From contig JAMCXX010000002.1 in assembly GCA_023474425.1 (NCBI GenBank), positions 4,217 to 68,216 of the forward strand: a stretch of DNA of 64,000 nucleotides, written 5' to 3'. This stretch comes from Patescibacteria group bacterium. Its GTDB lineage: Bacteria; Patescibacteriota; WWE3; JAMCXX01. A program made the position numbers and the translations under genes. This document shows positions 3,498 to 60,599 of the stretch, piece after piece (within the stretch, counting starts at the first letter, position 1; every line of letters begins with the position of its first letter). A model generated the notes under the pieces. The model had not been told where the DNA came from. It searched no databases and saw only the letters and a program-made list of their open reading frames with translations.

Positions 3498-4221
3498 AAC
3501 CCGAGGTTAAGGTGGCCCGGCCCTCCAGATCAATCAAATACCCTTCCAAACCCGGCCTTTTTTCAATAAACTCAATCCCCCGCCGCCCCATGGCAAAGGC
3601 GGCGGTGGCAAATCGGTCCGCCTCGTAAATGTTTGGGCCAACAACGGTGAGACTAACAACGTCTTCAATTTTTTCGGACGGATTGTGAGGGTTGTAGATG
3701 TGCTGGCCGCGAATATAAGTGCCGGAGGTTGCCAATCCCCCACCGTTTTTAAGATAAACAATTTTAACAACTTCGTTCTCGTCAAACGGATTCTTAATAC
3801 CCAAACTCCAGGGTTTTTTTTGCCCGTTTAAACCGCTTACCTCAATATCTCCGCCGGCATCCACATAAAAATTTTTAAACCCCTCCCCCTTAACAATCTG
3901 CGCCGCCTTATAAATGGCCCACCCCTTCACTAGCCCCGAAGGATCACATTTGCCGTGGTGGAAAATATTAAAATATCCGTTCGTTTCCTGCCGCGTTGCC
4001 TCGCAAAGTGAAAGAATTTCCCTCATTTCGCCGCTATAATCCTGCGGTTTCAAACGCCCGGAATTAATGAGACCAATATAGCTCTCCTCTTTGTAAGGAC
4101 TGTATTTTTGGTCGACTTGGGAAAAATAATCAAAAACCCGGTCGAAGTGGCTTTGTGAGGCGCTTCCGTCAACAATTTCCAAGGTTACCGGCATGCCCAT
4201 AATTAGTCTTGTCTGTTTCAT
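3469..4221 (-). CDS. apbE: FAD:protein FMN transferase (ApbE family)
   Basis: ApbE-like length and motifs (GGGLATSGTY). Adjacent to an FMN-binding-domain protein carrying an SGAT acceptor site. Confidence 0.85.
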   Translation of the reverse strand: MKQTRLIMGMPVTLEIVDGSASQSHFDRVFDYFSQVDQKYSPYKEESYIGLINSGRLKPQDYSGEMREILSLCEATRQETNGYFNIFHHGKCDPSGLVKGWAIYKAAQIVKGEGFKNFYVDAGGDIEVSGLNGQKKPWSLGIKNPFDENEVVKIVYLKNGGGLATSGTYIRGQHIYNPHNPSEKIEDVVSLTVVGPNIYEADRFATAAFAMGRRGIEFIEKRPGLEGYLIDLEGRATLTSGFELYCQNYD

Positions 4222-4230
4222 AAACAGTTA

Positions 4231-4713
4231 TTAATTGGCCTGGGAAAGAGCCGAATCAAGCGATTTCATGAATGCCAAACTGGTCTGGGTAGCTCCGGAA
4301 ACCACATCCACCTTAGCGCTCTGGGCAGTTAAAGCTTCGGACTTTAAAATCGGCGTGGCGTAGGAATTAATTTCCAGGGAAGTTTGGCGGTCGTGCGGAT
4401 AATCCAAAAACTGAAGATCGCTGATTTTGCCGGCGGAAACGGTAACGCTCACCTGAACATTCCCGTAAAAAGCGTCAACCACGCTGCCCGTATACCGGCC
4501 GTCCTTATAAGACATCATGCCGGGCATATGCCCCGGCGGGGTCATCATGGGCTTAGGCGGCGCCCCGGGCGCTGTTGAAGATCCTCCCTGGCTTTGATTT
4601 ACCGGCAAGAAATTGTTGGGTGTAGAGGACAATGATTCTCCATTAATTTTTTGCCTCAAGGCGTAAAGAGCAAAAGTTCCCACCACAAAAAAAGAAAGTA
4701 AAAATTTTTTCAT
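4231..4713 (-). CDS. secreted FMN-binding domain protein (flavinylation substrate)
   Basis: N-terminal signal/TM segment. C-terminal DVVSGATQTS matches the [S/T]GA[T/S] flavinylation motif. Confidence 0.75.
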   Translation of the reverse strand: MKKFLLSFFVVGTFALYALRQKINGESLSSTPNNFLPVNQSQGGSSTAPGAPPKPMMTPPGHMPGMMSYKDGRYTGSVVDAFYGNVQVSVTVSAGKISDLQFLDYPHDRQTSLEINSYATPILKSEALTAQSAKVDVVSGATQTSLAFMKSLDSALSQAN

Positions 4714-4851
4714 ATGTTATAAACTTTATAATTTTTATAACGCTTACAACTAAATATCCAAAAATTCTGAAATTTAGCTGATAACAAGATTAAATACAAA
4801 CCAAGTTCTCTTTCAGCTTATTTTAAGCTCCGGGAGTATAATCCGTTAAGT

Positions 4852-5526
4852 ATGCGGGTTTTAATCGTAGAAGACGAGCACAAAATTGCCAATTCCATTA
4901 AGAAGGGGCTCGAGCAGGAATCCCTGGCCGCCGATGTGGCCTACACCGGCACCGACGGATACGATTTGGCTTCAACAGAAGATTACGACTTAATTATTTT
5001 GGACCTCCTCTTGCCGGGTTTAAACGGCATTGAAATCTGCCGTAAACTGCGGTCGCAAAAAATCCATACGCCGATTTTAGTTCTCACCGCCAAGGGCCAG
5101 GTTGCCGACAAAGTGAACGGCTTAAACGCCGGGGCCGACGATTATTTAACCAAGCCTTTTGCCTTTGAAGAGCTTTTGGCCCGCATCAAGGCCCTTTCCC
5201 GACGCCCGCCAGAGCAGACCGGCACGGTCTTAAATTTTGACGACTTAACCCTTAACACCATTACTTATGAAGTTACCCGCGAGGGCAAAAGCCTAAATCT
5301 TTCCCGTAAGGAATTTTCTCTTCTGGAATATTTAATGCTCCACCCAAACCAGACTCTGACCAAAGACCAGATAATTAGTCACGTTTGGGATTATGATTCG
5401 GACATCCTGCCCAACACCGTAGAGGTTTACATTGGCTACCTGCGCGGCAAAATCGACAAACCCTTCCCCAAGAGGCCGGCCTTAATACATACTCTGCGCG
5501 GCTTTGGTTATCGACTAGGCAAATAA
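4852..5526 (+). CDS. OmpR-family response regulator
   Basis: Receiver domain (DLIILDLLLPGLNG) plus a winged-helix output domain (TVEVYIGYLRGKI). Confidence 0.9.
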   Translation: MRVLIVEDEHKIANSIKKGLEQESLAADVAYTGTDGYDLASTEDYDLIILDLLLPGLNGIEICRKLRSQKIHTPILVLTAKGQVADKVNGLNAGADDYLTKPFAFEELLARIKALSRRPPEQTGTVLNFDDLTLNTITYEVTREGKSLNLSRKEFSLLEYLMLHPNQTLTKDQIISHVWDYDSDILPNTVEVYIGYLRGKIDKPFPKRPALIHTLRGFGYRLGK

Positions 5527-5527
5527 A

Positions 5528-6604
5528 ATGTTTCACTCTGCGCGACTAAAACTAACAGCCTGGTACCTGCTCATTATAATGCTCGTAAGTCTAAGCTTCA
5601 GCCTGGCAATTTTCCGCATTGCCACCTCGGAACTGGACCGGGTGGAGCGAATTGCCCGGCTTCGGGCCGAAAGCGGCTTTCTTCCTCGGCCGTCAATCAG
5701 CAGCTCGCCTCTAAATCCCGGCGAGTCTTTAAGATTAGTTTTTCTTGATCCCGACTTGATTGCCGAAACCAAAAACCGCCTGGGCTTAATTCTTATTCTC
5801 ATTAACTTAGGAATTTTGGGCACCTCGGCTGTGGCCGGCTATTTTTTGGCCGGGCTAACCCTAAAACCCATTGCTGAAATGGTTGAGGAGCAGAGCAGGT
5901 TTGTCACCGACGCCTCGCATGAGCTGCGTACGCCCTTAACCTCGCTTAAATCGGAAATCGAGGTAGGCCTGCGCGACCAAAATATAACCTTGGCAGAGGC
6001 TAAAGATATTTTGCAAAGCAATCTCGAGGAAGTTAACAGCCTGCAAACGCTTTCCGACGCGCTCATAAAACTTACACAATACCGGGCCGTAAGCAATAAT
6101 TTGGATGTCACCGATGTTTCCCTCAAAAATCTTGCCGAGAGCGCAATTAAAAAGGTGGAGGGCTTAGCCAAGAGTAAGAACATTACCCTTAACAACAAAG
6201 TCGGAGACTTAAATCTTGAGGGTCACCTGCCCTCGCTCACCGAACTTATGGTTATTCTTTTGGACAATGCAATTAAGTACAGCCCCGAGGGCAAAACGGT
6301 TTTTTTAAGCTCGGAGAAAAACGACGGCTGGGTTTACTTAAGTATTTCCGACGAAGGGCCCGGCATTGACGAGAAAGACTTGCCCCATGTTTTCGACCGA
6401 TTTTACCGCGCCGATAAATCCCGCACCAAATCCGACACTCCCGGCTACGGCCTGGGACTTTCCATTGCCAGACAAATTGTGGAGAATCATCACGGCTCAA
6501 TCAAAGCTTTAAGTCTTCCCGGCCGAGGCGCCGCCTTCACCGTTCAACTGCCCTTAAAACACAATCCAAAAACTTCCGGATTTTCTAAGCCTATTTTCAG
6601 TTAG
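5528..6604 (+). CDS. sensor histidine kinase
   Basis: H-box FVTDASHELRTPLT and G2 box GYGLGLSIARQIV, with two N-terminal TM segments. The start is 2 nt after the regulator's stop codon. Confidence 0.9.
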   Translation: MFHSARLKLTAWYLLIIMLVSLSFSLAIFRIATSELDRVERIARLRAESGFLPRPSISSSPLNPGESLRLVFLDPDLIAETKNRLGLILILINLGILGTSAVAGYFLAGLTLKPIAEMVEEQSRFVTDASHELRTPLTSLKSEIEVGLRDQNITLAEAKDILQSNLEEVNSLQTLSDALIKLTQYRAVSNNLDVTDVSLKNLAESAIKKVEGLAKSKNITLNNKVGDLNLEGHLPSLTELMVILLDNAIKYSPEGKTVFLSSEKNDGWVYLSISDEGPGIDEKDLPHVFDRFYRADKSRTKSDTPGYGLGLSIARQIVENHHGSIKALSLPGRGAAFTVQLPLKHNPKTSGFSKPIFS

Positions 6605-6786: not shown

Positions 6787-8091
6787 ATGTTCGAACGAAT
6801 TAAAAAAATTCTTAGAAACCGCCGCAATCTTGCGGTTATTATTTTGCTTCTTATAGCGGCCTTCTTTTTTGGCCGCCGCTTCCTGACTTCAAGCAAAACT
6901 TCCGTCCAATACCAAACGGCTGATGCGCAAAAAGGCACTCTGGTAACCTCTGTGACTGCTTCCGGCAACGTCTCGGCCGGCGACAGCGTTACTGTGAGCA
7001 CCACGGCCACCGGCGTGGTGAGCCGAGTTTTTGTAAAAAACGGAGACAAAGTGGAGCAGGGACAAAAAATTGCCGAAATAACTCTTGACCAGGATTCGCA
7101 ACAGAGAGCCTCTTCGGCCTGGTCCTCTTACTTGTCCGCTAAAAACAGCCTAGCGAGCGCCAACCAAAATGTCCTCACAGTTCAACAGTCAATCGAGAAC
7201 GACAAAAGCAGCCTTTTGACCGCCCAGTCTAACGCAAACGGCACGGACAATTGGGACCCCACAAGCCCCGCCAAACAAAAACTCGACGAATCCAGACGCA
7301 GCGCCGAACTGGCTTTACAGATTGACTCAAGCAAAATGAACTCGGCCAACACCCAAATATTAAAAGCGCAAGCGGACCTTAACTCCGCCTGGCTTGCCTA
7401 CCAGTCGGTCGGCGGCACCATTACCGCCCCGATTACCGGTGTTGTTAGCAACCTGACTGTGGCCGAGGGTTCGGCCATCACCCCAAGTTCATCCTCGTCC
7501 AACAACTCACCGGCTTCGCAAAAGCTGGCCACGATTACCGTTCCCAACGGCCATGTGCAGGCTGTTGTTGATCTTTCGGAAATCGACGCCCCCAAGGTCA
7601 GCGCCGGTCAGAAAGCGACGCTCACGCTGGACGCTTTCCCCGGAAAAACTTTTACCGGCAAAGTAACACTCGTGGACACAAACGGCCAGATAAGTTCCGG
7701 AGTTACCACATACCCGGCTACGGTTATCTTCGACAACAATCCGGGCGGCATTTACCCAAACATGGGAGTGACCTCAAGCATTATTACCGCCGTCAAAGAA
7801 GGAGTGCTGCTTGTTCCTTCGGCCGCCGTGCAGACAACCGGCGGGCAGTCAACTGTTCGTGTCCAAAAGAACGGGCAAATTACCGCCGTTGAGGTGCAAA
7901 CCGGAGATTCAAATGACACGCAGACGGAAATCATTTCCGGAATAAACGATGGAGATACTGTGATTATTGGCTCAACGACGGGAGCCGCGGCTTCGGGACA
8001 AAACGCCTCCTCTCCCTTTAGTATTTTCGGCGGCGGCAACCGCGGCTTTGGCGGAGGCGGAGCGGTTATCCGCCGCATCGGTGGGGATTAG
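6787..8091 (+). CDS. efflux periplasmic adaptor (HlyD/MacA family)
   Basis: N-terminal TM segment, coiled-coil hairpin region and beta-barrel-like C-terminus. It lies directly upstream of MacB-type ATPase and FtsX permease genes. Confidence 0.8.
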   Translation: MFERIKKILRNRRNLAVIILLLIAAFFFGRRFLTSSKTSVQYQTADAQKGTLVTSVTASGNVSAGDSVTVSTTATGVVSRVFVKNGDKVEQGQKIAEITLDQDSQQRASSAWSSYLSAKNSLASANQNVLTVQQSIENDKSSLLTAQSNANGTDNWDPTSPAKQKLDESRRSAELALQIDSSKMNSANTQILKAQADLNSAWLAYQSVGGTITAPITGVVSNLTVAEGSAITPSSSSSNNSPASQKLATITVPNGHVQAVVDLSEIDAPKVSAGQKATLTLDAFPGKTFTGKVTLVDTNGQISSGVTTYPATVIFDNNPGGIYPNMGVTSSIITAVKEGVLLVPSAAVQTTGGQSTVRVQKNGQITAVEVQTGDSNDTQTEIISGINDGDTVIIGSTTGAAASGQNASSPFSIFGGGNRGFGGGGAVIRRIGGD

Positions 8092-8176
8092 AACATATTT
8101 CAATAGAGCAATGACGGAAATTCGCAGGAAAGGCAATTCTTCCGGCATCACCTACAACACTATCGACTGCCCGATA

Positions 8177-8276
8177 GGCGGGTGGCAAAGGCGGAGGGAG
8201 TCCCACCGAGCGACCGGAATCCCGCCAAAGGCGGGATGAGGACGTCGGGTGGGACGAGCCTTTGGCAGGACCCGCC
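8177..8276 (+). repeat. structured intergenic repeat, copy A (possible ncRNA)
   Basis: GGCGGGTGGCAAAGGCGGAGGGAGTCCCACCGAGCGACC...GTCGGGTGGGACGAGCCTTTGGCAGGACCCGCC. Nested stems are conserved with copies B and C. Confidence 0.6.
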
Positions 8277-8277
8277 A

Positions 8278-8988
8278 ATGGCTTTACATATTATGTCAAA
8301 TGAACCAACCATTCAAGTCAAAAATCTTGCCAAGGTTTACAAAATGGACGGCGTTGAGACCGTAGCCTTAACCGATGTTTCCTTCAAAATAAACAAAGGC
8401 GAATTTGTGGCTATTATGGGCCCATCCGGCTCGGGCAAGTCCACTCTCATGCACATTCTGGGCGCCCTCGACCTGCCGACTGCCGGCACCTACCTTTTGG
8501 ACGGACAGAATGTGGGGAAGCTTTCGGACGACGCATTGGCCGAAATCCGCAACCGTAAAATCGGTTTTGTTTTCCAGGCCTTTAACTTGCTTCCGCGAAC
8601 CACCGCTCTGGAAAATGTAATGCTGCCTATGGCCTACGCCGGTTTGCCAAAGAATGAAAGACAAAACAGCGCCCAGAAATTTTTGGAAATGGTGGGATTA
8701 AAAGACCGTATGGACCACACCTCAAACCAGCTTTCCGGCGGCCAACAGCAGAGGGTGGCCATTGCCCGGGCCTTAAGTCTTAATCCCTCAATTATTCTGG
8801 CCGACGAGCCGACCGGCAACATTGCCTCGGCCCAAGCCGAAGAAATTATGGACATATTTCAAAAACTCAACGAAGAAGGACACACCATTGTTATGATTAC
8901 CCACGAACCGGATATTGCGGAGCATGCCGAAAGAATTATTCATATCCGCGACGGCCGTCTGGTTGAAGACGCTCTTAACCATAAGTAA
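8278..8988 (+). CDS. ABC transporter ATP-binding protein (MacB/LolD-type)
   Basis: Walker [10 protein letters not shown], signature [15 protein letters not shown] and Walker B ILADEPTG. The start is moved to ATG 8278 because the upstream part of the tracked ORF is a translation of repeat A. Confidence 0.9.
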
Positions 8989-8996
8989 ATTAGAGT

Positions 8997-10220
8997 ATGA
9001 ACTTTAGCGAACTTTTTTGGGATAGCTTTAAAAATTTAAGTGTTAATAAACTGCGCACCGGCCTGGCCGCTTTGGGTATTGTTATTGGCATTGGCAGCGT
9101 CATTGGCCTGATTTCCCTGGGCCAGGGCAGCCAGCTTTCGGTGCAGTCACAGATTGAATCTCTAGGCGCCAATCTACTTACGGTCAGCCCCGGCGCTCCA
9201 TCGAGCGGCGCGGTCCGCGGCGCCGTTGGCGGCGGCACCACCCTAACCAACGGGGACGCCGCGGCTATTGCCGCCTCACCGCAAGTAACCACCATTCAAA
9301 ACGTCTCGCCGGAACTTTCGCGCCGCTCGCAAGTGACCACGGGCGCTGCCAACACCAACACCCAAGTCATAGGCGTTGAACCGGACTACCAAAGCGTTCA
9401 CAAAGTAGAAATAGCCGCGGGCAGTTTTATTAGCCAAAGAGACGTCGACTCTCTGGCCAAGGTAGCCGTGGTCGGGCCACAGGTTATGAGCGACCTTTTT
9501 GGCGACGGTTCAAACCCTATTGGACAGTCGATAAGAATTAACAACCAAAGTTTCACGATCGTTGGCGAAACCGTTTCCAAAGGCGGCTCCGGATTTCAAA
9601 ACCAGGACGATATTATTTTTGTTCCCCTCTCCACCGCGCAAAAAACGGTTTATGGCGCCGACTATTTAAGCTCAATTGCTCTCGAGGCCAAGAGTCAGGA
9701 GGTTATGACCGAAGCCGAAAACCAGGTGGGCTATCTGCTGCTTTCCCGTCACAAATTGAGCGACCCTGCCCAGGCCGATTTTAGGATTTTTTCTCAAGCA
9801 GATATTCTGAACACGGCCGCCTCGGTTACCGGCGCCTTTACCTCCATGCTCTCCGGCATTGCCGCCATTTCCCTGCTTGTGGGCGGCATTGGCATTATGA
9901 ATATTATGCTTATGTCCGTAACCGAGCGCACACGCGAAATCGGTTTGCGCAAAGCTTTAGGAGCCAAGAAGAAAACGATTACCCAGCAGTTCTTAACCGA
10001 GTCGGTGATTTTGACTTTTGCCGGCGGTCTTTTTGGCATTGTTCTGGGCATGATTATCTCCCTTATTCTTTCAAAAGTTACGGGCATACCGTTTGTTCTG
10101 GCGCCCTCGTCAATTATTTTGGCCTTCGGGGTTTCGGTGGGTATTGGCATTCTTTTCGGCTGGTATCCGGCCAATCGCGCCGCTAACCTCCAACCGATTG
10201 AGGCGTTGAGATATGAGTAA
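8997..10220 (+). CDS. ABC transporter permease (MacB/FtsX family)
   Basis: N-terminal TM segment, large periplasmic domain and a C-terminal FtsX-like 3-TM bundle. Confidence 0.9.
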   Translation: MNFSELFWDSFKNLSVNKLRTGLAALGIVIGIGSVIGLISLGQGSQLSVQSQIESLGANLLTVSPGAPSSGAVRGAVGGGTTLTNGDAAAIAASPQVTTIQNVSPELSRRSQVTTGAANTNTQVIGVEPDYQSVHKVEIAAGSFISQRDVDSLAKVAVVGPQVMSDLFGDGSNPIGQSIRINNQSFTIVGETVSKGGSGFQNQDDIIFVPLSTAQKTVYGADYLSSIALEAKSQEVMTEAENQVGYLLLSRHKLSDPAQADFRIFSQADILNTAASVTGAFTSMLSGIAAISLLVGGIGIMNIMLMSVTERTREIGLRKALGAKKKTITQQFLTESVILTFAGGLFGIVLGMIISLILSKVTGIPFVLAPSSIILAFGVSVGIGILFGWYPANRAANLQPIEALRYE

Positions 10221-10221
10221 G

Positions 10222-10388
10222 AACACCACTGATTTTCTTCACAGATACCCACTGATAGAAAGACGGGTGGCAAAGGCGGAGGGAGTCCCGTCGAGCGACC
10301 GGAACGAAGTGAGGACGCCTGCCTGCCGCAGGCAGGTCGGGTGGGACAGCTTGTCCGCCTCTGGCGGAAGCCTTTGGCAGGACCCGTC
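10222..10388 (+). repeat. structured intergenic repeat, copy B with 5' flank (core 10262-10388)
   Basis: Same scaffold as copies A and C, plus an extra hairpin (CCGCCTCTGGCGG). The 5' flank AACACCACTGATTTTCTTCACAGAT is shared with copy C. Confidence 0.6.
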
Positions 10389-10434
10389 ATATTGTTATTG
10401 CAAAAATTACTAACTTGAAAGGCGGTGAAAGCAG

Positions 10435-10851
10435 ATGAAAAATCCTTTATTAATAACCATTATTATTGCCCTGGTCGTGGGCGCAGGAGCTTTCTTGGGC
10501 GGTGTGCAGTACCAAAAAAGCCGCGGTGTTGGCAACTTTGCCGCCCAATTCGGAAACACGGCTAACCGCCGATTCGGACCTAACGGACCGAACGGAGCTT
10601 CAAACCGCGCCGTGCGCGGTCAGGTGGAAAGTATTGATGACAAAAGCCTAACCGTCAAACTTCCCGACGGTTCCTCAAAAATTGTGCTTTTTGGCACCAA
10701 TACCAACTTCATGGAGGCCACATCTGCCTCGCAGCAGAACATAAAATCGGGCGACGAAGTTTCGGTTTTTGGCACCAACAATGCCGATGGCTCAATTACC
10801 GCCCAGGACGTTCAAATTGGCCAAACAATGCGTCCCAATGTCGGACAGTAA
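10435..10851 (+). CDS. small secreted protein (DUF5666-like beta domain, tentative)
   Basis: N-terminal TM/signal segment. The C-terminal pattern (KSLTVKLPDGS...GDEVSVFGT...GSITAQDVQIG) supports only a weak family call. Confidence 0.5.
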   Translation: MKNPLLITIIIALVVGAGAFLGGVQYQKSRGVGNFAAQFGNTANRRFGPNGPNGASNRAVRGQVESIDDKSLTVKLPDGSSKIVLFGTNTNFMEATSASQQNIKSGDEVSVFGTNNADGSITAQDVQIGQTMRPNVGQ

Positions 10852-11606: not shown

Positions 11607-12422
11607 TTAGCGATGCCAAAGTCTTCGCCTCATCCTCATTTGGTCAACGGCTCCGGCCTCATCGTCGCGGATTTTGTGACCGGTGAGCGAGAGAAAAGAT
11701 TCTTCAAGAGTTTGGCTGCCCGTCTTAACTTTAAGTTCTTCGGGGCTTCCCTGCCCCACAATTTTTCCTTCGTCAATAACGGCTACCTTCCCTGCCGCCT
11801 TTTCGGCCTCTTCAATATAATGAGTCGTAAAAAAGATGGTAATTTTCTCGGTCTGGTTTAAATTTTTAATGTATTGCCAAAGATGATTGCGGGTCTGCGG
11901 GTCAAGTCCTTGAGTCGGCTCATCCAAAAAGAAAATCTTAGGGTGGTGCAAAAGGCCGCGGGCAATTTCGAGCCGCCGTTTCATACCGCCGGAAAAAGTT
12001 TTAACGAGGTCGTCCCGCCGCTCCCAAAGCTCCACAAATTCCAAAAGCTCCTGAATTCTTTTCCTGCGAACATCCGCGGGAACTCTGTAAAGAACGCCGT
12101 GAAATTCCAAATTCTCGCCGGCTGTCAGTTCGTCGTCAAGACTCGGGTCCTGAAAGACAATGCCAAAAGAACCGCGCACCGCATCCTCGTGCAAAACCGG
12201 GTCGTGCCCGTCAATCAGAATTCTGCCGGAAGTAGGCTTGAGCAAAGTTGTTAGCATCTTAATGGTCGTAGATTTGCCGGCGCCGTTTGGCCCCAGGAAA
12301 GCAAAAATTTCCCCGCGGTTAACACTGAAGGAAACGTCGTTGACAGCCGCAAAGCCGCCGAAGGTTTTAACCAGGTTTTCCACCTGAATAATTTTGGCCT
12401 CGTCTAAAGATTCACCTGCCAT
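11607..12422 (-). CDS. ABC transporter ATP-binding protein (DrrA-like)
   Basis: Walker A GPNGAGKSTT, signature FSGGMKRRLEIARGL and Walker B FFLDEPTQG. Confidence 0.9.
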   Translation of the reverse strand: MAGESLDEAKIIQVENLVKTFGGFAAVNDVSFSVNRGEIFAFLGPNGAGKSTTIKMLTTLLKPTSGRILIDGHDPVLHEDAVRGSFGIVFQDPSLDDELTAGENLEFHGVLYRVPADVRRKRIQELLEFVELWERRDDLVKTFSGGMKRRLEIARGLLHHPKIFFLDEPTQGLDPQTRNHLWQYIKNLNQTEKITIFFTTHYIEEAEKAAGKVAVIDEGKIVGQGSPEELKVKTGSQTLEESFLSLTGHKIRDDEAGAVDQMRMRRRLWHR

Positions 12423-12466
12423 AAGCGGTTATTATACAACATTTGTTGGTATAATGTCCTTAAAAT

Positions 12467-13591
12467 ATGCCAACCCAACTGGCCAAAACGGCAAAAGCCA
12501 CGCGTGTCGTGTTTTTTGGCTCAATCTTCTTAATAATCTTTTATCTCATCTTCGCTCAGGCCTTCGGGCTGATTATTGGTGTCATTAAATCCCTTTTGCC
12601 GATCAGAGACGTTCCGGCCACGGTGGGTTTCGGCAAACTGCCAAAAATTAATCTGCGCTCTTTTAAGCTTTCCGGAAACCCGCCAGCTTACGAATTGGAC
12701 ACGATTACCGGCGACCTGCCGCAGATGCCCAAGAAAATTGAGGTTTATCCCGTGGTCGAGCCCAAGGCCTCTTATCTTTCCCTCGACAAAGCCAAGGATG
12801 TGGCCAAACGTTTGGGTTTTAGCACGGATCCTCAAAGCATCTCTTCAAGCACTTATTATTGGGAACAGGACTATCAAACGTTAAAAATGAATATTTTTAC
12901 CCAAAATTTTACTCTCGAAAGCGACCTAACCAAGTTGGTAATTCCCATTGGCCAGCTGCCCGACGCCGCCGCCGTCGCCGGCCAGGCCGAGCAGTTGCTT
13001 TCCGGCAAAGGATTGCTCATGTACGGTTATGAAAACGGCAACCAGACGGCAACCATGGCCCAGATTGATAACGGACAAATTATTAGAGCTCAGGGAAGTG
13101 CCAATGCCAGTCTGGCCCGCATTGATTTCTTTAGAACCTTAAACGACCCGGCCGATAAAAGCGGCAAAACTTACCCGCCCTTACTTCCGCCCAACCCCAA
13201 AGAGGGCAACATTCAAATGCTTGTTTATGCGCCCAGAAAAAACGTTGATCTCTTGAATCTTAACTATAACAACTGGGAAATCGACAAAAACAGCCCGCAG
13301 ACCTACCCCTTAAGACCGATTACTGCCGCCTGGCAGGACGTAACCTCCGGGCAGGCAGCCATTGCCTACGTGCAGGATAAAGCCGCCACTTCTTTTGACT
13401 ATCCTTCGGAAGTGGAACTCGCAAAAGTTTTTATTCGCAAAGTTTATTTAGCTTATTTTGATGATATTAACCTTCAGTCCTACCTTCAGCCGATTTATGT
13501 TTTTGACGGGGACGCCACCGATTCCTTAGGCAAACCCTACGATTTTACCGCTTATGCTTTGGCCATTGACCCTGCCTGGACCCAGCCATAG
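12467..13591 (+). CDS. hypothetical membrane-anchored/secreted protein
   Basis: 374-aa ORF with one N-terminal TM segment. No family recognised. Confidence 0.5.
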   Translation: MPTQLAKTAKATRVVFFGSIFLIIFYLIFAQAFGLIIGVIKSLLPIRDVPATVGFGKLPKINLRSFKLSGNPPAYELDTITGDLPQMPKKIEVYPVVEPKASYLSLDKAKDVAKRLGFSTDPQSISSSTYYWEQDYQTLKMNIFTQNFTLESDLTKLVIPIGQLPDAAAVAGQAEQLLSGKGLLMYGYENGNQTATMAQIDNGQIIRAQGSANASLARIDFFRTLNDPADKSGKTYPPLLPPNPKEGNIQMLVYAPRKNVDLLNLNYNNWEIDKNSPQTYPLRPITAAWQDVTSGQAAIAYVQDKAATSFDYPSEVELAKVFIRKVYLAYFDDINLQSYLQPIYVFDGDATDSLGKPYDFTAYALAIDPAWTQP

Positions 13592-13642: not shown

Positions 13643-14683
13643 TTACTGCCAGAGATAACTTCTAAAAACCCAATCAACTAAATTCCGGGCGTCGGCGAAG
13701 CGGTCGGAACTGCCCAGAACCACCCCGATTATTTCGTGTCCGTCGCGGTTATAAAGGAAGGCCAAACAACCGAGGGCTTTATCGGTGTAGCCGGTTTTAA
13801 TGCCGTCAAAACCAATATTAAGCGGCAAAAGCTCATTGGTGGTTATTAAACTAAAGCTTTGGGCGCCGCCAACGGCGGTTATGGTTTCCTGAGGCGTTTC
13901 GGTAATGCGGCGAAACTCGGGGTAAGCTAAATCGGTCCGGGTCAGCTTTAAAAGGTCGCGGGCGGTGGAGTAATTATCGTCGTTTGAGTCGTCAACCCCC
14001 GAAGGATTGCCAAAATGCGTATCGGATAAACCCAATGTTTTGGCTTCGCCATTCATAAAGGTCACAAACTGAGCCGAGGTGGTGGCCTGTGGCATGGTGT
14101 TTTCGCTTAAAACGCAGGCGGCATCGGCGGCCGAAGGTAGAAGCAAGGCGTAGAGAAGAGAACGGACGGTAAAGCGCTGACCGGCTTTAAGCCCGATACG
14201 CAGGGCCGAGGCTCCAAGGTTTACAGGATCGGTACATTCGGGGCTAACGGCAACTTCTCTGCTCAAGTCGGCATTTTTAAAAGTCAAAAGAGCCGTCATC
14301 ATTTTAGTCAGGGAGGCCGGCGGCAGTTTCTCGTCGGCGTTTTTTTCATAGAGAACGGCGGAACTCGTAGCATCTTCAACCAAAGCCGCTTTACCCAAAA
14401 GAGAGGTAAAATCCTGACTCTCGGAAATTCTTACGGGCTTAACTATTTCAAGCGGCGGCGCGGCCGTTACCGTTTGTGAAAGAACCGACCCGCCCTCCGA
14501 CGATTTAGATGCTGAAGGCGCGGCCGTACCCGTAAAGAAGATATTGAAAAAAATCACCGCCAGGCTCAAAAACCTTAAAACGGTCGTAAAGGTGATTTCT
14601 TTTCTTTGGAGACTTTTCTTAAAACGTCCGCGTGTCTTTCGCAGTGACTGACCAATTAAATACTCCAATTCAAAAACTTTCAT
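13643..14683 (-). CDS. D-alanyl-D-alanine carboxypeptidase (peptidase S11)
   Basis: SxxK motif SLTKMMT and KTG motif IKTGYT, with an N-terminal membrane anchor. Confidence 0.85.
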   Translation of the reverse strand: MKVFELEYLIGQSLRKTRGRFKKSLQRKEITFTTVLRFLSLAVIFFNIFFTGTAAPSASKSSEGGSVLSQTVTAAPPLEIVKPVRISESQDFTSLLGKAALVEDATSSAVLYEKNADEKLPPASLTKMMTALLTFKNADLSREVAVSPECTDPVNLGASALRIGLKAGQRFTVRSLLYALLLPSAADAACVLSENTMPQATTSAQFVTFMNGEAKTLGLSDTHFGNPSGVDDSNDDNYSTARDLLKLTRTDLAYPEFRRITETPQETITAVGGAQSFSLITTNELLPLNIGFDGIKTGYTDKALGCLAFLYNRDGHEIIGVVLGSSDRFADARNLVDWVFRSYLWQ

Positions 14684-16598: not shown

Positions 16599-16745
16599 AG
16601 ACTCTGCTAGGGCGGTGCCACCTTGATTTCTAACTCAATTACGATCTTTAACGGAATCTTCCGGCGGATTCTACCTCCCAGCCAAGCTGGGACTCTTTCC
16701 GCAGCTCCGGTGTGTCAGCACCATCAAAGCCTTTTGGTTACTAAG
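16545..16745 (-). promoter_or_regulatory. T-box riboswitch leader (probable tRNA-Asp specificity)
   Basis: The minus strand carries AAGGUGGCACCGCC. A canonical antiterminator forms as CAAGG/[UGGCACC bulge]/GCCCU...AGGGC/CCUUG. It competes with the terminator at 16545-16598. A K-turn-like UGAUGG and a candidate GAU specifier are present, and aspS lies downstream. Confidence 0.75.
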
Positions 16746-16749
16746 GCTA

Positions 16750-16777
16750 ATAGTACTCCTTTAAACTACGAAGTCAA
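16750..16777 (-). promoter_or_regulatory. putative sigma70-type promoter for the T-box leader
   Basis: Minus strand TTGACT, 16-nt spacer, TACTAT. Confidence 0.4.
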
Positions 16778-17280: not shown

Positions 17281-17433
17281 ATGCCCAAACTCGTTTTCTA
17301 CCCATCGGGTCATATTGACCCGGCGGCCGACCCCGATGAGCAAAAGAGGCAAATAGAATTCTTTGGCCCGGAAGCCGGTGAATTCGCCGCGGTCGACGAA
17401 GAAAAGGAGGTTTTGGAAACCCAAGAAGAATAG
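17281..17433 (+). CDS. hypothetical acidic 50-aa protein (not in the ORF track)
   Basis: ATG immediately follows the upstream TAA (TAAATG). Sequence is MPKLVFYPSGHIDPAADPDEQKRQIEFFGPEAGEFAAVDEEKEVLETQEE. A hairpin follows at about 17445-17480. Confidence 0.4.
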   Translation: MPKLVFYPSGHIDPAADPDEQKRQIEFFGPEAGEFAAVDEEKEVLETQEE

Positions 17434-17511: not shown

Positions 17512-19209
17512 TCAGGCGGACTTTCTTAAATCCTTAAGTTTTAAAAGAAGTTTCGGCCGACTCGAAAACGAATCAGCGCTTAAATAAAAAACCAGACTCG
17601 CCGAATCGCCCACCGCCAGCCGCGCGGACCATTCGCCCAAATCAAATCCGATACAATCAATTGTATCGACCTCCCCATCGCCCTTGATTCTTGATTCCTG
17701 ATTCTTAGTTTTGACCTTCATCTTGAGGTGCCGGCCCTCTTTGCCCACGGTTCTCACCTCAACCACCAGGGCGTTTTTCAGCAAAAACACCGGCTCCGGG
17801 TTGCCCAGGCCAAAAGGCTCAAGTTTTTGAACCTTATTGTAAAGATCCAAATTTAGCTCGCCAAACTCGAGGGCTAAATCGACAACCAATTTCGGTTTGG
17901 GCAGAGCTATTTCTCTAATCTTCTGCCGGGCCGCTTTCGTAAATTCTTCGAGGCGGTCGGTGCGGATAGTAAAACCGGCGGCGCCGGCATGCCCTCCGAT
18001 ATTTTCATAATGTCCGCCAAGGGACCTTAAGAACTCCACCACATTAAATCCGTCAATAGACCTTGCTGAAGCCTTGGAAAATTCGGCGCCACGGCTTACA
18101 ACCACCGAAGGCGCGCCGTACTCCTGAACTAATTTTCCGGCCACCAAACCAATGATGCCTTCGTGAAATTCCTCGTGAACCGCCACCGTTATACCCGACA
18201 CCTGTTCTTTATCGTTGCTTATTTGCGATCGGGCCAGATCAAATAGGGAGGCGGTAAGCTCCTGCCTCTCGGCATTAATTCGATTAAGGTTTTGGGCAAT
18301 TTGGCGCGCCTGCTCGGGCTTATTCGTACACAAAAGCCGTAGGCTTTCCAAAGCCGTTTCCAACCGCCCGCTGGCATTAATCCGCGGGGCTAGTATCCAG
18401 CCAACTTCAAAGGTTCCTATTTTCCGCCCCTCAATACCGGCGGCTCTAATTAACTCTTTAAGACCCAAGTTTTGGGTGTGATTAATTTCCGCCAAACCGA
18501 ACTTCACCAAACTGCGGTTGGCGCCAAGGAGCGGCTGAAGGTCTGCCACCGTGGCCAGGGCCAAAAGGTCAAGATACTTAATTTGATTTACCAGCCGGCT
18601 GACAAGAACCCAGGACAGCCCGGCAGCACAAAGTTTATCCGTCCACAAAAGACTGCAGTCGGGCAAAGTTTCCGCTGGTGTGTGATGGTCGAGAATAAGA
18701 ACCTCGAAACCCCGGCTTTGAGCATAGGCCACTTCATCGAGGGCGGTGATACCGCAGTCAACCGTAATGAGGAGTGGTTTTGAGTGACTTAAGTTTCCCA
18801 AATCGCCCAAGTCACTTAGAGAATCGATTGACGACTTTGAGAGACCGTAGCCGTGTTCAAAACGGTTGGGAATAAAAGGCAGGCAGTTTTTGCAAGACAA
18901 ATCGCGGTAGATTGTCTGCCAAAGAATGCTCGCGGCGCAAACACCGTCCACATCGTAATCGCCGTGAATAAAAATCGGACGCTTTTCCAGAACGGCCGAT
19001 TTAACCGCATTCGCCGCCGAATCAAGCGCCCCCTCCTCCAACCCAAAAGATTCCTTAGATTCCTTAATTAATTCCGAAGGCTCTGGCGGCTGCAAAAATT
19101 TTCGGCGGGCCTCGTTGGTAACAATCTGTCTTTGGCGAAGGAGATTATTAACTATCCCCGACTCATTCATTGACCCCACCTGCCAGTCCCTTTCTAAAAC
19201 TTTAGCCAT
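17512..19209 (-). CDS. recJ: single-stranded-DNA-specific exonuclease RecJ
   Basis: DHH motifs HGDYDVDG and LILDHH, and DHHA1 motif GGHAGAAG. 565 aa. Confidence 0.9.
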   Translation of the reverse strand: MAKVLERDWQVGSMNESGIVNNLLRQRQIVTNEARRKFLQPPEPSELIKESKESFGLEEGALDSAANAVKSAVLEKRPIFIHGDYDVDGVCAASILWQTIYRDLSCKNCLPFIPNRFEHGYGLSKSSIDSLSDLGDLGNLSHSKPLLITVDCGITALDEVAYAQSRGFEVLILDHHTPAETLPDCSLLWTDKLCAAGLSWVLVSRLVNQIKYLDLLALATVADLQPLLGANRSLVKFGLAEINHTQNLGLKELIRAAGIEGRKIGTFEVGWILAPRINASGRLETALESLRLLCTNKPEQARQIAQNLNRINAERQELTASLFDLARSQISNDKEQVSGITVAVHEEFHEGIIGLVAGKLVQEYGAPSVVVSRGAEFSKASARSIDGFNVVEFLRSLGGHYENIGGHAGAAGFTIRTDRLEEFTKAARQKIREIALPKPKLVVDLALEFGELNLDLYNKVQKLEPFGLGNPEPVFLLKNALVVEVRTVGKEGRHLKMKVKTKNQESRIKGDGEVDTIDCIGFDLGEWSARLAVGDSASLVFYLSADSFSSRPKLLLKLKDLRKSA

Positions 19210-20122
19210 TTGCCCTCTTTCTCCGCCGGTAAAAATCGCTCAAGACGATCAAAAGCGGCCCGGCCACAAACGGCGAAGAGTAAGTGCCGGAAATAGTACC
19301 CAAAAGCAAAGCCAGGGCAAACCAGTGAAGGCTCGCCCCTCCCAAAACAAACAGGGCCGTAAGCATAAAAATAACGGTTAGGGAGTTATTGAGCGAGCGG
19401 ACAATTGTTTCGTTGGTAGAGCTGTCAATGATTTTGGCCAATTCTTCGCTATTAAGGTCGCTGAACCGGACGTTGAGCGTTTTCATTTTTTCGCGGATTC
19501 GGTCATAAACCACAATTGTGTCGTGAACCGAAAAAGAAAGAACGGTAAGGACGGCCGTGACAAAAAGCGTGTCGACCTCAACCTTAAAAAAATGACCGAG
19601 GAGGGAAAAAACGCCCAAAATCACCAGACTGTCGTGGAGAGTTGCCAAGGTGGCGCACAGACCAAAGAACCAGTCTTTAAACTGCAAAGCCACATAGACG
19701 GCGATTAAGAACGCCGCCAGAGCCACCGCCGCCACCGTTTTAAACAAAAGCTCGGCGCCCAAAGTCGGCCCCAAAGTTTCAAACTGAAGCTCGCTGACCG
19801 GCACCACCGATTGATTTATGGCCGCCACCAATTTGTCTTTCCGGGCATTGTCAATCGGCGGCAGGCGCAGGGTCAGGTTGTTGCCGGAAAAACTCTCTCC
19901 GATTAAGTTCAACCCATTGGCCTCAATAACCGCTTTTATGGGGTTCAAATAATACTCCGCGTTTGCCGACGTTCTAGTTTCGAGCGCCAGTTCCAAATTG
20001 GAGCCGCCGGTAAAGTCAACGCCGGGATTAAGCCGGTATAGAAAAAGGGAAATAAGCCCCGGCAAAATAACCAGTGCTGATATAATTAAATATATCTTTT
20101 TATAACTCATGAATCGGATCAT
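19202..20122 (-). CDS. secF: protein translocase subunit SecF
   Basis: Six-TM SecF architecture immediately downstream of secD. Confidence 0.9.
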   Translation of the reverse strand: MIRFMSYKKIYLIISALVILPGLISLFLYRLNPGVDFTGGSNLELALETRTSANAEYYLNPIKAVIEANGLNLIGESFSGNNLTLRLPPIDNARKDKLVAAINQSVVPVSELQFETLGPTLGAELLFKTVAAVALAAFLIAVYVALQFKDWFFGLCATLATLHDSLVILGVFSLLGHFFKVEVDTLFVTAVLTVLSFSVHDTIVVYDRIREKMKTLNVRFSDLNSEELAKIIDSSTNETIVRSLNNSLTVIFMLTALFVLGGASLHWFALALLLGTISGTYSSPFVAGPLLIVLSDFYRRRKRANG

Positions 20123-20136
20123 AATCTTTGAGAGCT

Positions 20137-20160
20137 AACACCACAGATTCACACAGATCG
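20137..20160 (+). repeat. fragment matching only the 5' flank of repeat copies B and C
   Basis: AACACCACAGATTCACACAGATCG, compared with AACACCACAGATTTTCTTCACAGATCTGCACAGATCG in copy C. Confidence 0.35.
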
Positions 20161-33907: not shown

Positions 33908-34576
33908 TCACTTGGTCAGCTTATCCTTAAGCCCGCGCAGGATTTCCGACGCCAATTCCTTACCGCCCAGGCCAAAAGCCAAACCTCCGGCCAAAGCCAG
34001 CATGGCCACAAAACCGGTAAAAAGAATTCTCACCAGATCGGCGGCTACTCCCAACTGGTTTAAAACAACCAGCGCCGTAAAGAAGAGAATGGCATAGTAG
34101 GAAATCCCGCTCAAGAGTTTGGCCGCTTTTTCATCCAAACCCATGGCCGACTGTCGTACTACATCGGCGGTCAAGTTGGCCACCACAAAGCCTACTAATC
34201 CTACAATCACGGCCACAAAAACATTGGGCAAATAGAGGATTAGGTTGTTTAGAATATCGGTAACTTTGGAAAGCCCCCAGGTTTCCACCGCCGGCACCAG
34301 AAAAAGAATAATCACCGTCCATCGGGTCAGCTCGGAAAGCAAGACTTCCCAGACGCGAAACTGCCCTTCCTCGCCCATGACCTTGATTTGAACCAGGAAT
34401 TTGCCCACCCTTAGAGCCCGAAGCATGGCAACCACCAAACCGGCCGCCACCTTGGCCAGAACAATACCGATAATCAAAAGAATAAGCCCGGCCACAAAGT
34501 TCGGCAGGTAGTTTTGGACGCTTAAAATTCCAGCACTAAGACTTAACCAAATTGCTTGCGCTAAATTCTGAATCAT
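33908..34576 (-). CDS. membrane protein with repeated TM-helix modules (mechanosensitive-channel-like N-terminal repeat family, tentative)
   Basis: 222 aa with several similar helices. SD AAGGAGGTG precedes the ATG. Confidence 0.55.
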   Translation of the reverse strand: MIQNLAQAIWLSLSAGILSVQNYLPNFVAGLILLIIGIVLAKVAAGLVVAMLRALRVGKFLVQIKVMGEEGQFRVWEVLLSELTRWTVIILFLVPAVETWGLSKVTDILNNLILYLPNVFVAVIVGLVGFVVANLTADVVRQSAMGLDEKAAKLLSGISYYAILFFTALVVLNQLGVAADLVRILFTGFVAMLALAGGLAFGLGGKELASEILRGLKDKLTK

Positions 34577-34590
34577 TTACTCACCTCCTT

Positions 34591-34731
34591 AACACCACAG
34601 ATTTTCTTCACAGATCTGCACAGATCGAAAGACGGGTGGCAAAGGCGGAGGGCGTCCCGTCGAGCGACAGCAGTCCCGACCGCAGTCGGGGCGATGCCGT
34701 CGGACGGGACGAGCCTTTGGCAGGACCCGTC
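34591..34731 (+). repeat. structured intergenic repeat, copy C with 5' flank (core 34631-34731)
   Basis: GACGGGTGGCAAAGGCGGAGGGCGTCCCGTCGAGCGAC...GTCGGACGGGACGAGCCTTTGGCAGGACCCGTC. Confidence 0.6.
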
Positions 34732-34752
34732 TGTCGACAAAACAGCATGTTG

Positions 34753-35157
34753 AAACGAGGAAGCTTGTAAGCCAGGTTCTGTTGTTATGGCGATCATCTC
34801 TCTAGTTTTGATGTTACTCAATAACTCCCCGATTTTACTCGGGATGCCCGCGTCTTTGCCTCTGTGTCGGCGAGTCATAGAAGCGTTCGGCGGTTACAGC
34901 CCCGGGGATTGCCTTAATCCCAACTTTACGTCGGGACGTTTCACCCACTCATCGTGCGGTCTTACAACCGTTTAGACAAATGCTCGTCTCTGTGGCTCTC
35001 AAATCCCGTCAATTCGGAATTTGTCCTCCCGCCGTTTCCGGTAGGAGACACTAGCCATTGCTGGTCGGGCCTTGCGGCCCGTTGGGCTGCCGACGGCTGC
35101 CTGGACTTTCCTCTACCCATAGCTGTAAGCGAAGGGTAGCGATCGCCCATCTTCCTC
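34753..35157 (-). ncRNA. rnpB: RNase P RNA (bacterial type A)
   Basis: The minus strand contains GAGGAAAGUCCAGGC (CR-I) and ACAGAACCUGGCUUA (CR-V). P1 pairs as GAGGAAG...CUUCCUC. The ORFs tracked across this region are spurious. Confidence 0.9.
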
Positions 35158-35241
35158 AATTCTATTTTACCACAAAATCCCGTCCCAACGCGGGCCGTGG
35201 CCGAGCCTTCGAATCAAACCTAATAACTTTAGAAAACCTAT

Positions 35242-59527: not shown

Positions 59528-59629
59528 GTTAAAACGAATCCGATAAGTTACAAATCTTAACGAGTCTTAACGAACTAGGCTTCTCATTCGATAAGATTCG
59601 ACAAGATTCGCTGTCCTGCGATTAGATTT
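59528..59629 (-). promoter_or_regulatory. structured leader repeat R1, upstream of rpsD
   Basis: About 80 percent identical by eye to 60383-60482. It forms a long imperfect hairpin built from CTTAACGA / TCGATAAG words. Confidence 0.5.
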
Positions 59630-60382: not shown

Positions 60383-60482
60383 AAATAAAACGAATCCAAC
60401 AAAATCAAATCTTAACGAATCTTAACGAATTAAACTTTCTATTCGATAAGATTAGACAAGATTCGCTACCCGACGATTCGTT
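60383..60482 (-). promoter_or_regulatory. structured leader repeat R2, upstream of rpsM
   Basis: Paralogous to 59528-59629. The hairpin AAUCUUAUCGAAU/AUUCGUUAAGAUU pairs at 12 of 13 positions. Confidence 0.5.
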
Positions 60483-60599
60483 TTACCCCTGTCGCTGCTT
60501 GTGCTTGGGATTTTTTTTGCAAATCACAAAAAGAACGCCCTTGCGCTTAACCACTTTGCAGTCCTTGCACATTTTTTTAATACTGGCTCTAACCTTCAT
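60483..60599 (-). CDS. rpmJ: 50S ribosomal protein L36 (not in the ORF track)
   Basis: The minus strand encodes [38 protein letters not shown]. Confidence 0.88.

Follow-up and report, generated by a model that had tools for sequence, protein, structure and literature searches.

A family of hairpin-forming interspersed repeats in a genome of the Patescibacteria and its likeness to palindromic mobile elements

Genomes of the Candidate Phyla Radiation (CPR), or Patescibacteria, are held to be streamlined, with little mobile DNA. The attC sites of integrons are imperfect palindromes with R'/R'' core sites (RYYYAAC / GTTRRRY) that come together with an integrase and a cassette array, and Rickettsia palindromic elements (RPE; Ogata et al. 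2000) can reportedly sit in frame within protein genes while the open reading frame (ORF) is left intact. REPINs are doublets of REP (repetitive extragenic palindromic) sequences that form hairpins and are mobilised by REP-associated tyrosine transposases, the RAYTs (Bertels & Rainey; PMC3116915, PMC3337134). Here we describe a family of hairpin repeats from a 64,000-nucleotide stretch of a WWE3 genome of the Patescibacteria (assembly GCA_023474425.1, contig JAMCXX010000002.1, positions 4,217 to 68,216; this whole stretch is called the window below). [quoted passage not shown] Such an element would spread as DNA, probably via a folded single-stranded intermediate, and the conserved base of its fold would be recognised by a putative enzyme supplied in trans.

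The hairpin repeat family itself is genuine. The 24-mer GGTGGCAAAGGCGGAGGGAGTCCC is found at 8181 and 10266 and, with one mismatch, at 34635, each time on the + strand, and a shuffled window gives zero matches. The three copies were recovered independently by repeat finding and by MAFFT alignment, and a covariance model of 27 bp built from A, C and the fourth copy described below (CM R1) matches only A, B and C when run on the window. The element is identical in independent Logan assemblies from two runs and the fourth copy is present in six assemblies, so that chance similarity or an assembly artefact has a practically negligible probability. One Logan assembly of the source organism terminates within copy C, which is the behaviour expected of such a repeat, since multi-copy repeats interrupt assemblers. 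The copies of the window have a GC content of 69–72% against 48% in the window, and the fourth copy one of 61% against 38% in its genome.

The copies are located in unrelated places: twice in an operon of a response regulator, a histidine kinase, macA and macB, once beside rnpB, and once in frame in a membrane-protein gene of another genus. These unrelated contexts, together with the mixed orientation to transcription, count for an interspersed DNA element. Three of the four known copies are intergenic, and the density in the source genome is three in ~73 kb. As the earlier note had correctly seen, two copies flank macB: the last base of copy A is positioned 1 nt ahead of ATG 8278, the start of the macB ATPase in public gene calls, and copy B begins 41 nt past the stop codon of the macB permease. 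The window comes from a metagenome-assembled genome of the Microgenomates type; its permease is 100% identical to an NCBI protein of a 'Patescibacteria group bacterium', and the next relatives follow at 74%. Four relatives (permease 73–74% identical) keep the order of response regulator, histidine kinase, membrane-fusion protein (MFP), macB ATPase, macB permease, (hydrolase) and DUF5666 gene. The gap between the MFP and ATPase genes is 5, 5 and 18 nt in the relatives versus 186 nt in the window, and the gap between the permease and DUF5666 genes, where these are adjacent, is 35 nt in one relative (locus L107) versus 214 nt in the window. CM R1 finds zero copies in 102 kb from the operon-bearing relatives (orthologous operons L104–L109). 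Since the operons of the relatives have short gaps and hold no element, A and B are lineage-specific insertions into a conserved operon, and the link with macB is incidental. A conserved sense position upstream of macB orthologues, as a cis-regulatory RNA would have, is not seen: the operons L104–L109 lack the element and both C and the fourth copy are antisense. The reading as an RNA linked to macB, put forward in the earlier note, is therefore weak. That note had also named equal occurrence in both orientations relative to transcription as refuting its reading, and two copies of each orientation were found: A and B are sense relative to the neighbouring genes, and C and the fourth copy are antisense to local transcription. 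Copy C lies between the 3' end of the RNase P RNA (34752-35158, −) and the start of a mechanosensitive-channel gene (33908-34576, −), and it is antisense to both because both are on the − strand.

It had been suggested that the exposed GGAGG could act as a Shine-Dalgarno mimic. The GGAGGG bulge precedes the macB start codon by ~80 nt, or by 17 bp of helix once folded, and at this distance such a role is unsupported. A terminator scan found no terminator-like tail at any copy, and a promoter scan no sigma-70-like promoter at any copy. If co-transcribed, the sense copies A and B would each give the mRNA a hairpin, at −62 to −64 kcal/mol, and that of A may alter mRNA stability or translation because it ends 1 nt ahead of the macB ATG. 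We infer that RNA effects of A and B on macB are side effects and not the reason for the existence of the element. The macB ATPase has two in-frame ATG codons, at 8278 and 8293; public calls take the one at 8278 (236 aa) and the alignment of relatives favours that at 8293. Neither is preceded by a clear Shine-Dalgarno sequence; in the relatives an SD-like sequence is located in the gap of 5–18 nt.

The fourth copy lies on contig MFBA01000007.1 of GCA_001774815.1 (locus L085), from Candidatus Curtissbacteria, with a genome of 38% GC. It shows 5–9 differences from the copies of the window in 75 basal positions (88–93% identical), and its tip is replaced by a ~60-nt AT-rich stretch. The host ORF reads through the element, with 116 codons before it and ~570 after it in one frame. 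Six independent assemblies contain the host protein intact, and the insert, 49 codons long, is also kept in a diverged strain variant that carries several substitutions in other parts of the protein. No insert-free homologue of this protein was found among the CPR loci compared, and Pfam and NCBIfam contain no matching profile. A Y1/RAYT-like gene is located ~1 kb from the copy (PF01797, 31 bits; NF047646, REP-associated tyrosine transposase, 56 bits at a cut-off of 80). In a further locus from another sample, L112, the element occupies positions 3749-3894 (6051-6196 in L085), and the sole nucleotide difference across the 2214-nt host gene is a synonymous C-to-G change within the element, GAGGACGTCGG to GAGGAGGTCGG.

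The fold is built on a conserved base. The first stem, P1, comprises 7 bp (G[GA]CGGGU/ACCCG[CU]C) and is followed by a 3-nt AGG bulge on the 3' side. P2 (CAAAGGC/GCCUUUG) comprises 7 bp plus one G-C pair past a G.G mismatch, and it is separated by the unpaired 5' bulge GGAGGG[A/C] from P3, which comprises 8 bp (GUCCCNNC/GNNGGGAC). Above P3 there is a GAG bulge, P4 (CGAC/GUCG) and a tip that is variable or enlarged: copy B has two additional small hairpins on the 3' side (~10316-10336 and ~10348-10366) and lacks the apical hairpin of the A/C type, and the L085 copy carries its AT-rich insert there. The stems, the bulges and the variable tip of this scaffold agree with the earlier description, except that the second stem, given there as 9 bp, is really 7+1 bp; the variants of P3, including the G.U/U.G pairs of B, are also as quoted there. 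The minimum free energy (MFE) of the + strand is −64.2 kcal/mol for A (z −7.3), −61.4 for C (z −4.9) and −62.6 for B (z −1.9). A and C reach the scaffold as the MFE structure, and the MFE structure of B lacks the full scaffold. The − strand folds about equally well, with z-scores of −6.2, −2.7 and −6.9.

Covariation was examined in a hand-trimmed core of the four copies, in which each tip was replaced by a GAAA loop and the inserted hairpin of B was removed. Standard pairs make up 98.1% of the 108 stem cells; 22 of the 27 pairs are invariant and three are changed on both sides. The latter are position 2 of P1 (G-C, A-U or G.U), position 6 of P3 (A-U, G-C or G.U) and position 7 of P3 (C-G, U-A, G-C or U.G), so that compensatory changes are indeed present, as was claimed. 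Between A and C there is likewise a compensated change in the apical hairpin (CCCGCC/GGCGGG versus CCCGAC/GUCGGG), and the pairing is lost when the 3' partners are slid by 1–3 columns. The observed covariation measures are reached by 19 to 56 of 500 shuffles; the hairpin is maintained, and the statistics are not strong because there are only four sequences. Evidence specific to one strand consists of three G.U pairs, of which B holds two side by side and L085 the third, against zero A.C mismatches, with a chance probability of ~0.12–0.25. Copy B is C-like at core positions 2, 29, 30 and 74 and A-like at positions 23, 48 and 49. Because of these mixed positions its wobble intermediate may be explained by exchange between C-like and A-like copies as readily as by selection on an RNA. 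In long palindromes, compensatory change is possible without selection, via template switching between the arms (quasipalindrome correction). Selection on an RNA fold over a DNA palindrome, for which the wobble pairs had been taken to argue, is thus not supported.

In the window the + strand has an excess of C (GC skew −0.05), and the − strand carries 42 of the 59 long ORFs; L085 follows the same pattern (skew −0.146). In all four copies the GGAGGG strand coincides with the C-rich (lagging) strand, regardless of which way the local genes run. This orientation hints at a replication-linked determinant at the DNA level.

The two arms of the element are inverted copies of one ~30-nt unit, GRCGGGT..CAAAGGC..GTCCCNNC, with 22–24 of 34 aligned columns identical, and they differ by fixed indels, which are seen as the AGG, GGAGGGA and GAG bulges. 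The spacer is different in A, B, C and L085 and is self-pairing in all of them. The arms of A, B and C fold on themselves with −7.6 to −17.1 kcal/mol (the 3' arm of B being taken with its inserted hairpin), and those of L085 poorly, with −4.9 and −6.4 kcal/mol. In this architecture the element resembles REPINs: it is ~90–130 nt long, GC-rich and, in three of the four known copies, extragenic, with two inverted short arms and a variable self-pairing spacer (PMC3337134), and this lineage has a Y1/RAYT-like gene, located 1 kb from the L085 copy. It differs from them in that its arms are ~30 nt long with large fixed bulges, whereas those of REPINs are ~20-nt near-perfect palindromes, that one copy is intragenic, and that ~3 copies per 70 kb are seen here versus hundreds per genome. 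A tblastn search of the window with the L085 RAYT gave nothing. A link of the REPIN-RAYT type was considered and is not confirmed, as the RAYT-like genes carry another hairpin and neither the orthologue loci nor the window give a pairing of the two.

The element also resembles bacterial MITEs (e.g. Correia and ERIC), as it is short and non-coding, has terminal inverted repeats (5' GRCGGGTGGCAAAGGC pairs with 3' GCCTTTGGCAGGACCCGYC) and a variable interior, is placed between genes, including within operons, and can be co-transcribed as a hairpin; in contrast to them, no target-site duplication was detected and no parent insertion sequence (IS) with matching ends was found. With RPE the L085 copy shares that a palindromic repeat of 100–150 nt sits in frame inside a coding gene whose ORF is kept. 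The differences are that this is a single intragenic case and that there is no sequence similarity. The likeness to integron attC sites comprises an imperfect palindrome with conserved basal stems and fixed extrahelical bases, a variable tip and length, and strand-specific folding. Direct reading of the sequence shows that the element lacks the attC core consensus, that is R'/R'', and its neighbours belong to a conserved chromosomal operon and not to a cassette array. No transposase or integrase is present among the 10 neighbouring ORFs scanned.

Searches for further copies yielded little. An exact 18-mer was searched in 185,579 GTDB species genomes and a 21-mer pattern in JGI metagenomes, both scans being of the exact-pattern kind that would miss diverged members. 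The former gave 76 matches, all of them, judged by their flanks, single-copy chance matches in unrelated taxa and none with a properly placed 3' half. The latter gave 15, with one true copy (L085); the other 14 are GGKGGGRPD-type coding sequence, which we take to be the C-terminus of alaS. Two scans of viral contigs gave only chance matches in high-GC phage coding sequence, and blastn against plasmids and phages found nothing relevant. CM R1 detected zero copies in ~9.5 kb of further sequence of the source organism and in 176 kb from related CPR genomes. As the earlier note had supposed, the element is not a known Rfam family: Rfam 15 gave no match even at E up to 10, and the best local matches are noise (KDPG-aldolase, 22.7 bits against a gathering score of 54.6; TP73-AS1, 14.6 against 75). 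The peptide AKAEGVP[PS]SDR that results from translation of the repeat had been assigned to three ORFs; it is present in A and B, and C reads AKAEGVPSSDS. A six-frame composite peptide search returned nothing, yet this result is unreliable, as OGD86007.1 in the collection searched holds a 50-residue exact match; phmmer with the same composite query finds OGD86007.1, the L085 protein, locally. A single-frame peptide search among 1.84 billion representatives gave one match, judged to be of low complexity.

Several observations weigh against a mobile, non-autonomous repeat. In L085, L094 and L096 the RAYT-like genes have another hairpin at their flanks, one of 15 nt (CAGAT-ACCGG-ATCTG), and CM R1 detects the element nowhere within 10 kb of two RAYT orthologues (88% and 63% identical; 74 kb). 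When the sequences on either side of the four copies were read directly, no target-site duplication was seen, with no common or duplicated bases, and neither a transposase nor a parent IS sharing the ends turned up in the window, GTDB, JGI, plasmids or phages, the large scans being for exact patterns. Filled/empty polymorphism within one species was not seen. Public data hold very few members of the family (one JGI match and none in the GTDB genomes by the exact 18-mer), which is unusual for a successful mobile element. All three strand-assignable non-Watson-Crick stem pairs are G.U on the + strand, and the bulges GGAGGG, AGG and GAG do not vary among the four copies, which come from two genera. 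Finally, four copies sample number, orientation and covariation weakly (p ~0.12 for the uniform orientation). The invariance of the bulges would agree with a functional RNA or a protein-binding site as well, and it is the strongest argument for one.

The invariant bulges are what a structured RNA made from the + strand would account for, acting either in cis in the macAB mRNA (on stability, processing or translation) or as small RNAs with the segment upstream of B and C as promoter. Such RNAs would also agree with the 98% of stem cells that pair, the three of 27 pairs changed on both sides, the compensated apical change between A and C, the G.U pairs without any A.C, the upstream segment common to B and C, and the GC-rich islands in a genome of lower GC. 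We nevertheless consider them unlikely: copy C runs antisense to its two neighbours and a sigma-70-like promoter was not found there, the L085 copy lies antisense within a coding gene, the macAB operons of the relatives lack the element, A lacks the upstream segment, which also stands alone between secD and secF, the − strand folds almost equally well, 19 to 56 of 500 shuffles of the four sequences reach the observed covariation, and Rfam holds no match. An improbable alternative is that the copies are functional DNA sites, namely folded or cruciform targets of host proteins (attC-like, of a domesticated HUH/RAYT enzyme, or BIME-like for nucleoid proteins or gyrase) whose orientation is set by the replication strand. 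The placement of all four copies on the C-rich strand irrespective of gene orientation, the attC-like outline of two short conserved stems parted by fixed unpaired bases under a variable terminal structure, and the Y1/RAYT-like gene near the L085 copy point this way. Against it, the attC core sites are absent, tblastn and the 10 neighbouring ORFs revealed neither an integrase nor a RAYT in the window, the RAYT-like genes have a hairpin of their own and the element is missing from their orthologue loci, and four copies are too few for an orientation bias. A palindromic interspersed repeat spread as DNA is the reading we favour as the most economical. Positions of the features are collected in Table 1.

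Table 1. Positions of the repeat copies, their parts, the gaps that hold them and other repeats (window numbering unless a locus is named).
Feature	Position	Strand	Remarks
Copy A	8177..8276	+	100 nt; CM R1 113.8 bits
Copy A, outer parts	P1 8177-8183/8270-8276; G-C pair 8184/8266; P2 8186-8192/8258-8264; GGAGGGA bulge 8193-8199		
Copy A, inner parts	P3 8200-8207/8248-8255; GAG 8208-8210; P4 8211-8214/8244-8247; apical hairpin 8219-8237		
Copy B	10262..10388	+	127 nt; basal stems as in A; P3 with G.U and U.G; CM R1 55.9 bits
Copy C	34631..34731	+	101 nt; CM R1 118.6 bits
L085 copy	6051-6196		in frame, antisense inside 737-aa membrane-protein ORF 4333-6546 (−)
macA-macB gap	8092..8277	+	between MacA-like membrane-fusion gene (6787-8091) and macB ATPase (8278-8988); holds copy A
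Permease-DUF5666 gap	10221..10434	+	between macB permease (8997-10220) and DUF5666 gene (10435-10851); holds 5' motif and copy B
5' segment of B	10222..10261	+	40 nt, common to C; 91% identity over 78-nt unit including first 38 nt of the hairpin
5' segment of C	34591..34630	+	adjoins Shine-Dalgarno of the − strand gene starting at 34576
Solitary AACACCACAGATT..CACAGATCG motif	20137..20160	+	without hairpin, between secD and secF
RAYT-linked 15-nt hairpins	L085 7209, 7695, 7908; L094 9946, 10181, 10657; L096 9970, 10178, 10653		
L108 repeat	1840-1996, 3588-3771, 6064-6196, 12332-12514, 13009-13176, 13738-13905, 17921-18102, 18535-18717, 19799-19969	+	

Copies B and C are preceded by a common 40-nt segment that copy A lacks. 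It reads AACACCACTGAT-N6-CACAGAT-N3-CACTGAT-AGAAA and contains three direct CACWGAT repeats. The motif AACACCACWGATT, in which the direct CACWGAT repeats follow at spacings of 10 and 13 nt, has exactly three occurrences in the window. The segment may either belong to a long form of the element or be a motif that the element prefers as its neighbour. The spacing of the CACWGAT repeats resembles direct-repeat sites of the OmpR/PhoB type.

The RNase P RNA next to copy C is of bacterial class A (34752-35158, −) and scores 76.3 bits with E 4.5e-23; it is missed at the default threshold because the score falls short of the Rfam gathering score of 100. A sigma-70-like promoter, TTGGGA-18-TAGAAT, is located immediately upstream of it at 35188-35159.

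Other repeats were observed in the window and in the loci compared. The hairpin CAGAT-ACCGG-ATCTG (CGAT..ATCG in L096) occurs three times per RAYT/IS200-like gene: upstream, inverted downstream, and inside the coding sequence at a conserved position. A second, unrelated family in the window (59551-59629 and 60406-60484, 82% identity) is an AT-rich imperfect palindrome, CGAATCTTAACGA...TTCGATAAGATTCG, whose two copies lie between the ribosomal protein genes S13/S11/S4 of a − strand operon. L104 has an intergenic family of its own, with 4–5 copies and units of up to ~140 nt (12848-12917, 13953-14099, 16628-16774 and 17359-17428). L108, a related Microgenomates contig, carries nine copies of a 133–184-nt repeat in 21 kb, all on the + strand and nearly filling the intergenic regions. 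Their consensus folds into a three-way junction of 41 pairs, 13 of them with compensatory change, with ~25 G.U cells versus three A.C, and it is not in Rfam; the Logan contig L109 starts and ends within copies of this repeat. Homology of the L108 family with that of the window, suggested by a common GTCCC...GGGACGAG and GCAGG, was detected neither by CM R1 nor by nhmmer, in either direction. The L108 family may be of greater interest than the one described here.

In this lineage, a hairpin of −64 kcal/mol adjoining the start codon of the ATPase may lower or uncouple the translation of macB. Such repeats could also cause mis-annotation (spurious N-terminal extensions and fake peptides), assembly breaks and false candidates for non-coding RNAs. 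It seems rather improbable that the element, perhaps together with the neighbouring Microgenomates families, chief among them the three-way-junction repeat of L108, represents an undescribed class of strand-specifically folding CPR elements, either a single-stranded DNA mobile element or a mobile structured RNA module. If this were true, the invariant bulges GGAGGG, AGG and GAG would form a functional surface to which a protein or the ribosome binds, and the orientation on one strand (4/4 here and 9/9 in L108, the C-rich strand) would reflect the mechanism. The presence of long hairpin repeat families in conserved operons, and even in an intact gene, means that such elements do colonise CPR genomes.

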